DNA of 11,725 bases from a virus, in UHGV virus genome UHGV-0243446. The stretch is one strand, 5' to 3'. Below are positions 6,518-8,589 of the stretch, piece by piece. The notes under the pieces are model-generated. The model searched no databases and was not told where the DNA came from. It was given only the letters and a program-made list of their open reading frames with translations. Positions within the stretch are counted from its first letter, which is position 1; every line of letters starts with the position of its first letter. Both the position numbers and the translations under genes were made by a program.

Positions 6518-6817
6518 TCAAATAAGTGGTTTGCTGCCTAATTTCATTTTCTGGCGACCAACACAAGTCACACCCATTTCACTGCGTGGCTTGCTGTAGT
6601 AAATACGGTTCTGTTTACGCTCGACTTCTTCTGCCTTCTTGCAGCGAAGGCTTCCGAGTGATGCTGCTTTGTCTGCTCTGACGCAACCAGAGAGCTTTAG
6701 CGCAATTTTTCGCGCCAGTCGCTGTTCTTGCATTGCCTGTTCACGTTGAGCCTGTCTGCGTGCTCTGCGGCGATTTCTGGTGTTATCGTCAGCCAGATAT
6801 GTAATGACTACTGCCAT
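6518..6817 (-). CDS. N: N-family transcription antitermination protein
   Basis: ATG at 6817 with GGAGG RBS 5 nt upstream. N-terminal arginine-rich motif (TRNRRRARRQAQREQ). C-terminal region (RKQNRIYYSKPRSEMGVTCVGRQKMKLGSKPLI) resembles lambda N. nutL lies upstream in the leader. Confidence 0.85.
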   Translation of the reverse strand: MAVVITYLADDNTRNRRRARRQAQREQAMQEQRLARKIALKLSGCVRADKAASLGSLRCKKAEEVERKQNRIYYSKPRSEMGVTCVGRQKMKLGSKPLI

Positions 6818-6843
6818 GTTGACCTCCGATGATTGACTTTGGC

Positions 6844-6902
6844 GGTGACGCGCCGGGTGCTTATCTTCCGGTTGCTGTCGTGCAGCTGCACTTCACGTCA
6901 CC
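6844..6902 (-). other. Structured N leader: long inverted repeat (GGTGACG...CGTCACC) enclosing the 12-bp palindrome GTGCAGCTGCAC
   Basis: Seen directly in the sequence between nutL and the N RBS. By analogy with the RNase III-processed hairpin in the lambda N leader. Confidence 0.4.
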
Positions 6903-6923
6903 CCAAAGCCAACTACTCTTTGG

Positions 6924-6966
6924 TTCCCGCATTTCGGCGGGACAATCCCATCAATGTTAAAGAGCC
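6924..6966 (-). promoter_or_regulatory. nutL: boxA (GCTCTTTAACA) plus boxB hairpin (TCCCGCCGAAATGCGGGA)
   Basis: On the minus strand the boxB 19-mer is identical to the one downstream of cro (nutR). The boxA-like CGCTCTT core precedes it. Located about 40 nt downstream of the predicted PL start. Confidence 0.75.
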
Positions 6967-7004
6967 TGCCAATCTGTTCCGTTTGGCTTCCAGCGTCCTG
7001 CTGA

Positions 7005-7100
7005 TGGCTAAAGAATACTGTAGGTATTTTATTGTGTAAATACCCAAGGTATTTATTTTTGGTGAAATAATGATAAGCAAATGAATACAAAGGATATTTA
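7005..7100 (-). promoter_or_regulatory. PL promoter with OL operators
   Basis: Minus-strand -35 TTTACA (7040-7035), 17-bp spacer, -10 TATTCT (7017-7012). 17-bp dyad sites GAATACTGTAGGTATTT (7013-7029), AAATACCCAAGGTATTT (7038-7054) and a weaker GAATACAAAGGATATTT (7083-7099). Same half-site family as the OR sites. Confidence 0.6.
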
Positions 7101-7185
7101 TTTTTTTCGGTGTCTGCTTGTTCAGTGCTTTTTATGCGGGATATGTGAAGTGGATCCCGATAGCTATTGCTGCCGGGATTATGGG

Positions 7186-7575
7186 TTAGTCAGCGAAGGT
7201 TAAGACGAGAATTACCTTAATGATGTCTGCTACAACAGACACGGCCATAGATAAACCAAAGACAATCCAAGCCATAGAGATGTCTTCACTACCATCGTAT
7301 AGAGTTCCGTAATCACTGGTGTAAGGCGTAAATGTCGCGCCTTGATACAACAGGTATAAGCTTGAACCATAGAGGATAAATGCAGATATCCCTTGTATTG
7401 CTATGATCACCAGAATCATGAAACGAGCTGATCTATGCGCCCAAGCCTGGCTTATTTTTTCTGATAGAGATTTCGCAATAAAAGCATGCGCTAAGCCGTA
7501 AATTGTCGAGATTTCCAACATCCCCAAAAAGCTTGCTATAGCGGTTCCAACCATAATCGCCCCTTGCGTGATCAA
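7186..7575 (-). CDS. Small polytopic membrane protein (3 predicted TM helices) in the rex/immunity-region position
   Basis: Track ORF begins with TTG overlapping the cI stop. An ATG about 7554 with AAGGGG RBS is likely the real start (about 122 aa). Three hydrophobic segments of about 22-25 residues. Downstream of cI on the same strand, as rexAB is in lambda. Confidence 0.6.
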   Translation of the reverse strand: MITQGAIMVGTAIASFLGMLEISTIYGLAHAFIAKSLSEKISQAWAHRSARFMILVIIAIQGISAFILYGSSLYLLYQGATFTPYTSDYGTLYDGSEDISMAWIVFGLSMAVSVVADIIKVILVLTFAD

Positions 7576-8288
7576 ACCAGCCTTAGTTTTGTCTCAATTG
7601 CAACGCCTATAATCTTGCAGTTTCCATTGATTGGCACGAGAGGCCATGCAGGATTAAGTCCCTTGAGGTATTTATTTCCGCCGTCGATTATCAGCTTCTT
7701 GAATGTTGCTTCGTTAGAGTCAGAAAGTTTTGCTATGACCAAGCTGCCGTTGATCGCCTCCCTTCCGGTATCGAAAAGAACGAATGTTCCCTCTGGAATG
7801 CTTAACCCAACCGGTGCCGTCATTGAATCACCTTCCACTTTAAGCCAGAACGCATTACCTTGAATATGCGCGTCAGACTCAAGCCAAACATCTATGTCTT
7901 TAATGGTGTATGGTTCGCATGCTTCACACCACGAGCCAGCCTGGATACTGCTTAACACCGGATACCTCTTTCCTGCTCTGTATTCCCCTGCATACCTTAC
8001 GTTGGCATCGCTCTTAAGGCTTTCTGCCTGTTCTGCAACCTTGGCAGCAATTGACTGGCTAAAATCAGCAATTGAGACTTGCAACAGTCGTGCAAAACCA
8101 GATGCAACCTCAACGTTTAGCGCGTTTCTGCCATTAAGATAATGCCCTACCGCTCCTTGGGTGATACCCAGTTCATCAGCGATTGAGTATTGGGTTATTC
8201 CCAATTCTTTCTTTTTTGACTCATACAAAGCCTTAAGCCGCTTAGCGTCTTCGAGCTGTTCTGTCGTCAGTGATTTTTTATTTTCCAT
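7572..8288 (-). CDS. cI: cI-type phage repressor (HTH N-domain plus S24 LexA-like autoprotease C-domain)
   Basis: N-terminus MENKKSLTTEQLEDAKRLKALYESKKKELGITQYSIADELG resembles lambda cI. Ala-Gly cleavage site in IQAGSW. Catalytic Ser in GDSM and Lys in FKKL. Start codon abuts the operator region. Confidence 0.92.
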   Translation of the reverse strand: MENKKSLTTEQLEDAKRLKALYESKKKELGITQYSIADELGITQGAVGHYLNGRNALNVEVASGFARLLQVSIADFSQSIAAKVAEQAESLKSDANVRYAGEYRAGKRYPVLSSIQAGSWCEACEPYTIKDIDVWLESDAHIQGNAFWLKVEGDSMTAPVGLSIPEGTFVLFDTGREAINGSLVIAKLSDSNEATFKKLIIDGGNKYLKGLNPAWPLVPINGNCKIIGVAIETKLRLV

Positions 8289-8394
8289 AGCTTAATTCTA
8301 ATAGCTAAGGTACTTAAACTAAAAATACCCTGAGTATTGATTGCTTTGAATACCTGTAGTATTCTTTGTTCATGGTTAATAACGGAGAGTGCAT
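8289..8394. promoter_or_regulatory. OR operator region with divergent PRM and PR promoters
   Basis: Dyad sites AATACCCTGAGTATT (8324-8338) and GAATACCTGTAGTATTC (8348-8364); possible weak third site about 8299-8316. PR: -35 TTGATT (8337-8342), 17-bp spacer, -10 TATTCT (8360-8365). PRM on the minus strand: -10 TAGAAT (8300-8295), weak -35 TTTAGT (8323-8318), start at or near the cI AUG (leaderless). Confidence 0.65.
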
Positions 8395-8589
8395 ATGATT
8401 CGAATGACACTTGCCGATTACGCCAAAATCCATGGACAGGCTAAAGCAGCCAGTGACTTTGGTGTAATCCAGTGCGCTATCAGCAAGGCCATTCTGGCAG
8501 GCCGTAACATTATGGTTACGGTAAAGCCTGATGGCAGTGTGATTGGAGAGGAAGTTCGTCCTTTCCCAAGCAACAAGAAAAACAAATAG
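8395..8589 (+). CDS. cro: Cro repressor
   Basis: Product [64 protein letters not shown] resembles lambda Cro. GGAGAG RBS at 8384-8389. The track start at 8389 is a GTG; ATG at 8395 is preferred. Confidence 0.88.

Follow-up and report, generated by a model that had tools for sequence, protein, structure and literature searches.

What is the AT-rich non-coding DNA of about 130 bp that lies between the leftward operators (OL) of the virus genome UHGV-0243446 and the small membrane-protein gene that follows, in the slot held by rexAB in lambda? A preliminary description delimited this block at positions 7055-7185 and offered two explanations, a scar of cargo insertion or an autonomous promoter/terminator. 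In the present analysis, which covered the window (the whole stretch of 11,725 nucleotides), the block is composite and ordinary, and the outcome is a small refinement of annotation. The reading preferred here, to which we give a probability of roughly 0.6, is that two different things meet near position 7108, namely the distal end of the PL/OL control region (7054-7107) and the 3′ tail of the membrane-protein gene, hkaS, with the functions proposed for it below (7108-7185).

Judged by its sequence, the window represents an immunity region of the HK620 type, from a lambdoid prophage. Positions 6800-7600 are 98% identical to HK620, mEpX2, and HK630, and also to HK140, HF4s, and others. The curated GenBank record of HK620 (AF335538; Clark et al. 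2001) was mapped onto the window (offset +5299 from locus L001) and contains the same module, with pL, OL1, OL2, hkaS, and cI, at ~97-98% identity over the stretch. The early leftward promoter PL was found by a consensus scan (9 of 12 matches, 17-nt spacer), and the HK620 record also marks pL at this position. Of 5426 complete E. coli genomes, 146 (~2.7%) contain a 211-bp sequence that spans the block, which is never truncated. The features of the region are collected in Table 1.

The predicted membrane protein HkaS gave only a sub-threshold Pfam match (Cation_ATPase_C) and no PADLOC match. Its family is narrow: clustering at 90% identity gives 11 clusters, which come from E. coli, Hafnia, and Salmonella, and the gene lies between cI and OL in every context inspected. 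An Rfam search with the entire window (E ≤ 1) returned no match. On the other side of PL, the leader from nutL to the start of N (6818-6925) is a hot spot where insertions of ~90-440 bp occur (loci L003, L010, L020, L028, and others), and mosaic breakpoints among homoimmune phages also fall in this leader.

Table 1. Features of the immunity region, in window coordinates (distances from PL are counted from its start)
Feature	Position	Strand	Sequence	Remarks
N gene	6518-6817	-		
PL early leftward promoter	7005-7040	-	-35 TTTACA (7040-7035), -10 TATTCT (7017-7012)	Start at ~7005
OL1	7014-7028		AATACTGTAGGTATT	Perfect pattern match; 7013-7029 in the HK620 record
OL2	7039-7053		AATACCCAAGGTATT	Perfect; centre 25 bp from OL1; 7038-7054 in the HK620 record
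Proximal A/T tract	7054-7060		TATTTTT	~-49 to -55 of PL; columns +9 to +11 conserved in a 31-locus alignment
Spacer	7061-7083			Length kept, sequence variable; includes the HK620 'OL3'
Small ORF	7081-7203	+		40 aa in the window (T7); judged not a gene
Third operator, proposed true OL3	7084-7098		AATACAAAGGATATT	1 mismatch; centre 7091, +45 from OL2, ~-86 from PL start
Distal A/T tract	7097-7107		TTTATTTTTTT	-92 to -102 of PL; T-run 7101-7107, length variable; abuts third operator
Distal hkaS 3′ untranslated RNA	7108-7153	-		C-rich, G-poor
Stem-loop	7154-7179	-	AUCCCGG..UCGGGAU	6 nt past hkaS stop; -13.7 kcal/mol, z = -4.0
hkaS	7186-7554	-		122-aa predicted membrane protein, slot between cI and OL; stop codon 7186-7188
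cI repressor	7572-8288	-		HTH_3 + Peptidase_S24
OR3	8300-8314			2 mismatches
OR2	8324-8338			Perfect; centre 24 bp from OR3
OR1	8349-8363			Perfect; centre 25 bp from OR2
cro	8389-8589	+		

The non-coding stretch reported between OL and the membrane-protein gene is present, extending from OL2 to the hkaS stop codon, and it does lie downstream of the gene, whose 3′ end faces the block. Its AT-richness holds for the left part only. Positions 7055-7185 as a whole have 37.4% GC against 46.5% in the window, which places them no lower than the 6.5th percentile among 131-bp windows. GC falls to 26.2% in the left 65 bp (7055-7119; 0.6th percentile), and 7054-7107, at 18.5%, ties the lowest 54-bp stretch of the window, whereas the right 66 bp (7120-7185) have 48.5% GC, above the window mean. 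The AT-rich 120-bp core is 7000-7119 and takes in PL, OL1, and OL2, and thus sits to the left of the block as first delimited. Homology among loci with different cargo stops at the right edge of the T-run (~7108), which places a module junction there.

Operators were sought with the pattern AATAC-N5-GTATT, and mononucleotide shuffles served as background for the 11.7-kb window. With at most one mismatch, the shuffles gave 0.5 sites per 11.7 kb, and AATACAAAGGATATT beats chance. Operator-like sites with two mismatches within hkaS (7344, 7385) are at chance level, 6.4 being expected per window. Going by its sequence, the site at 7084-7098 is probably the true OL3, a candidate CI operator. The preliminary description had noted a third OL-like site widely separated from the first two by the block; the site is real and stands apart from OL1 and OL2, but it lies inside the block, behind a spacer of ~30 bp and not 130. 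The distance between the centres of OL2 and the third site is 45 bp, versus 24-25 bp for the remaining operator pairs, and it departs from the spacing of about 20-25 bp at which operators cooperate pairwise in lambda. Since 45 equals 24 + 21 bp, two helical turns above the usual distance, the third operator would lie on the same helix face. Cooperative CI binding over this gap, which is wider than that of any adjacent operator pair in lambda, is assumed here. None of 37 homoimmune haplotypes varies in the half-sites of the third operator; the common SNPs are found in the flanking spacer (7062 and 7077), and the spacer is 30 bp long in OS31, L071, and L072 though its sequence differs.

Two sets of relatives were compared. 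The homoimmune set comprised 68 other sequences with (almost) identical cI (63 IMG/VR contigs and 5 phage records), while distant relatives were found via cI among IMG/VR loci (L071-L087) and GTDB genomes (L088-L131). The cI proteins of the latter are 51-87% identical, with an invariant recognition helix, and the same half-sites are found at OR and OL. Among 33 non-redundant OL regions (<90% identical over 75 bp beyond OL2), a third site with at most two mismatches is present in 26, at +45 (15 regions), +21 (7), or +29/30 (4) only, and the mirror-side control beyond OL1 gave a third site in one of the 33. In 28 of these 33 regions, the start of a TTTAWTTT motif lies between +50 and +52. In an ungapped alignment on the OL2 centre, positions +50 to +58 read ATTTATTTT in 26-29 of 31 loci, regardless of where the third site lies. 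The +45 layout is shared by hkaS-type loci, by loci without cargo (OS31, L113, L114), and by loci with unrelated cargo (L072, L093, L094, L095, L118); the +45 site plus T-run is kept in all six hkaS-type loci with 52-82% HkaS identity.

Two further observations concern the same region. An 'ATGAWT' motif at +35 to +40 from the OL2 centre (window 7081-7086) is shared by 27-29 of 31 loci, including some with the third operator at another offset, and in lambda ATGAAT is fused directly to the T-run. Four OL sites are present in the cargo-less L113 and L114, in which an extra +30 site overlaps the perfect +45 site by one base.

The lambda OL region is built in the same order, with cI, accessory gene(s), a non-coding stretch, OL3, OL2, OL1/PL, nutL, and N, and in both cases two strong operators overlap PL, a weaker third lies beyond, and OR3 is weak. 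A non-coding stretch separates the accessory gene from the operators in both, with ~130 bp up to OL2 in the window and 173 bp from rexB to OL3 in lambda. The start of PL was placed via gcgtcctgctgat, which is identical to the lambda PL start region; the lambda PL mRNA, which we take to begin AUCAGCAGGACGC, was used in placing the start at window position 7005. The T-run begins 104 nt from this anchor in the window, in lambda, and in the heteroimmune Stx phage SH2026Stx1. Lambda carries a TTTATTTTTT tract at equal distance from the PL start, the sequence beyond its OL3 being ...atgaaTTTATTTTTTgcagg (also given as ...tgTTTTTTatatgaaTTTATTTTTTgcagg), and phage ECP1 has aatttaattttc at the equivalent position. 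L097 and L098 share 18 bp with lambda (GAATTTATTTTTTGCAGG), and in the P22-type immunity regions of N7 and CUS-3 the tract is absent at that position. Lambda differs in several respects. Its third operator is 20 bp from OL2, whereas that of the window is 45 bp away and directly adjoins the A/T tract, and the accessory gene of the window encodes one small membrane protein unrelated to RexA/RexB. In addition, and also in contrast to lambda, the IHF consensus WATCARNNNNTTR (at most one mismatch) was not found in 7058-7110, which covers the spacer, and its matches across the window are at chance level.

On the PL-sense strand, 7107-7097 reads AAAAAAATAAA, an A-run upstream of the promoter. The proximal A/T tract is at the place of a promoter-proximal UP element and, given that position, may act as one. 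The distal tract is a candidate distal UP element, which is equated with that of lambda by sequence and position; the bases that form the lambda element are those we take to do so from a reading of the sequence and from secondary citations. The distal T-run varies in length, with T6 in 53, T7 in 14 (including the window), T8 in one, and a G-interrupted form in one of 69 sequences, HK620 having T6. Changes of 1 bp are thus tolerated, and the T7 form is not just a sequencing error, because it is present in complete E. coli genomes (100% identical in two). According to PMC3708714 and PMC8053113, the CI-mediated OL-OR loop brings an OL-proximal UP element next to PRM, and this element activates PRM via the alpha-CTD of RNA polymerase; a 'distant UP element' that works together with IHF at lambda PL is attributed to Giladi et al. 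1998, as cited in PMC1784095.

It could also be argued that the AT-rich stretch is, apart from its operators, a functionless spacer, whose conservation comes from common descent and low rates of insertion and deletion. The polymorphic T-run, the freely diverging spacer sequences, the lack of an IHF match, and the P22-type regions that do without the tract agree with this view. However, the position of the tract is kept in 28 of 33 regions though the DNA between OL2 and the tract has been rearranged, with third sites at three offsets, and lambda and SH2026Stx1, which are heteroimmune and have unrelated operators, carry the tract equally far from the start of PL. A functionless spacer therefore appears unlikely.

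With regard to the right part of the block, the preferred reading of a 3′ tail rests on a stem-loop and a C-rich RNA. The C/G ratio of 2.5 across the RNA of 7076-7153 is at the 99th percentile of the window. No U-run directly follows the stem-loop, the hairpin continuing into CCACUUCACAUAUCCC, and a terminator scan gave nothing in the block. The stretch 7108-7185 is specific to hkaS-type loci and travels with hkaS, so that a link suspected earlier between the block and the gene holds for the stretch adjoining hkaS. L137 (82% HkaS identity) has the same hairpin with a longer stem, and in L139 (59%) and L071 (52%) its place is taken by other GC-rich hairpins, which also have no U-run on the hkaS strand. 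Canonical hairpin-plus-U terminators stand at the equivalent position in lambda and in most relatives with other cargo; tIMM of lambda is such a terminator and overlaps the rexB stop, whereas the hairpin of the window has no U-run.

To judge from these sequence features, the hairpin and the C-rich tail probably end the cI-hkaS transcript, and 7108-7153 is a candidate Rho-loading or termination zone. Of the autonomous terminator suggested in the preliminary description, the canonical form was not found in the block, but the end of hkaS would still stop the immunity transcript. As the stem-loop has no U-tract and most relatives with other cargo have canonical terminators, termination is the weakest step of the argument. 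The operator palindrome with the T-run was also considered as a rightward terminator on the plus strand and was rejected, since it folds at only -2.8 kcal/mol.

Two relatives show peculiarities in this tail. In L137/L138 (Hafnia-type), a slippage-prone run of 10 G separates the 3′ hairpin from the hkaS stop. In L071, a canonical terminator (GCCCGGatattgtgCCGGGCATTTTTG) between the T-run and the hkaS homologue points rightward to the 3′ end of the homologue, which suggests that rightward transcription from the OL region needs stopping in this locus.

The slot between cI and OL is variable, from 0 to 2.4 kb, with differing genes on both strands. It is empty in Serratia phage OS31, L097/L098, L103, and L113/L114, and it contains hkaS homologues in L071 and L137-L142. 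The L074 type has a lipoprotein-like plus-strand gene, and the L072 and L077 types and Hafnia phage Pocitis76 have other plus-strand genes with strong ribosome-binding sites. Slot genes opposite in strand to cI, with strong ribosome-binding sites, were seen in many relatives (L072, L074/L088, L077/L089/L090, and L007, which is Pocitis76), and they include a lipoprotein-like ORF (MRLLVAAALALPMVANASC...) and another ORF beginning MVLDEERISMKIQAMG.... The promoters of these genes have to be located immediately past the T-run, where Pocitis76 has an extended -10 (TGaTAAAAT).

This variability, the module junction inside the block near 7108, and the fact that 7108-7185 travels with hkaS would suit the idea that a cargo (moron) insertion left the block as its scar or border, with its own promoter and/or terminator and with hkaS expressed independently of PRM. 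The idea is largely refuted by the relatives. The AT-rich half is in place without cargo and with unrelated cargo, and the arrangement OL1-25-OL2-45-third site plus T-run is also present in the cargo-less OS31, L113 (Kluyvera), and L114 (Phytobacter); the alignment check proposed in the preliminary description, on whether the block is co-variable with the cargo gene, was run and found this half kept where the cargo gene is missing. The block and hkaS are never apart in the 68 other homoimmune sequences (≥94% identity), whose mosaic breakpoints fall in the nutL/N leader, left of PL. In the same way, all 146 block-bearing complete E. coli genomes also carry hkaS, and the presence/absence polymorphism of a moron is not seen. 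hkaS has 42% GC, close to the 45.6% of cI, and starts 17 nt past the cI stop with a Shine-Dalgarno sequence of its own. An insertion scar is accordingly very improbable.

The supposed promoter fares no better. Because the block lies downstream (3′) of hkaS, it cannot drive this gene, and a promoter consensus scan of both strands found none in the block, the only nearby match being PL. The same scan, whose sensitivity is limited in that it also missed PR, found no minus-strand promoter-like site upstream of hkaS, in cI (7555-8288). A PRM-like rightward promoter activated from OL2 was rejected, since inspection by eye gave no acceptable -10/-35 pair; an AATAAT at 7066-7071 has no -35 and is only loosely kept in relatives. 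The analogy once drawn with lambda PLIT extends to the fact that both concern the expression of an accessory gene between cI and OL. PLIT is situated within rexA, ahead of rexB, whereas the block is downstream of hkaS and has no promoter-like site.

The HK620 record itself gives a different account of the block, with 'OL3' at window 7060-7076 and 'tIMM', as an intrinsic terminator, at 7073-7103 (AF335538 7888-7931 corresponds to window 7060-7103). This account comes from a curated record and puts OL3 near the OL2-OL3 spacing of lambda. However, the annotated 'OL3' has no operator match at two or fewer mismatches, the common SNPs 7062 and 7077 lie in or beside it, and it is not conserved in OS31, L071, and L072. 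The 'tIMM' RNA is rejected as a terminator because its hairpin is no more stable than shuffled sequences (-0.6 kcal/mol), and an A-run precedes it on the cI strand while no U-run follows; furthermore, OS31 keeps the sequence element despite a canonical terminator right after cI. On these sequence comparisons both annotated features look misplaced, and it is highly unlikely that the record is right about them. The two features have probably been copied into later annotations. A literature search for HK620 OL3, hkaS, or the operator gave no relevant match.

Finally, it is extremely improbable that the block encodes a 35-aa hydrophobic plus-strand protein (MNTKDIYFFGVCLFSAFYAGYVKWIPIAIAAGIMG, from ATG 7081 to a stop at 7189 in the T6 version), convergent with hkaS, with a start that abuts the third operator and with on/off switching by T-run slippage: although the ORF is intact in 53 of 69 homoimmune sequences, is an annotated CDS in phage HF4s, resembles a single-pass membrane peptide, and could find a hint of rightward transcription, in at least one relative, in the plus-strand terminator of L071, its frame is broken in 16 of the 69 (the window and 15 others), its intact variants have 11 non-synonymous versus 2 synonymous changes, it stops after 3-14 codons in L071, L137, L139, and OS31 (the first three with hkaS 52-82% identical), tblastn found no homologue beyond the near-identical set, neither a Shine-Dalgarno sequence nor a plus-strand promoter-like site precedes it, and it was not called by PGAP and has no Pfam or PADLOC match. 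The ORF is probably spurious.

For the preferred reading, in which the control region and the hkaS tail meet near 7108, the following mechanism may be envisaged from the comparison with lambda. The third operator would be weak and filled at high CI, and it would pair with the weak OR3 via the OL-OR loop and limit PRM. The A/T tract would be a distal UP-type element contacted by the alpha-CTD, to the benefit of PL and, by way of the loop, of PRM. The untranslated 3′ end of the cI-hkaS transcript (7108-7185) would be the functional equivalent of lambda tIMM, working as a non-canonical or Rho-dependent terminator with a hairpin that protects the 3′ end, and CI bound at OL may be an additional transcription roadblock. 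In the +45 architecture, the right half-site of the operator overlaps the tract (GATATTTATTTTTTT), and it could be speculated, with considerable doubt, that the two are one composite element in which CI occupancy gates the use of the tract by the alpha-CTD.

If the composite element were real, the CI concentration would switch both the activation that the loop delivers to PRM and the distal stimulation of PL, the +21, +29/30, and +45 layouts would be alternative evolutionary wirings, and the length of the T-run would be a tuning knob. The conservation of the tract at ~92-102 bp upstream of PL, across heteroimmune lambdoids and many Enterobacterales prophages, supports the view that an OL-proximal UP element is general and not lambda-specific. 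The meaning of the AT-rich stretch itself is mostly one of housekeeping. It appears to be a normal part of the lambdoid switch and does not point to an inserted gene or a concealed promoter, and the data correct the positions of the third leftward operator and of 'tIMM' in the widely reused HK620 annotation.
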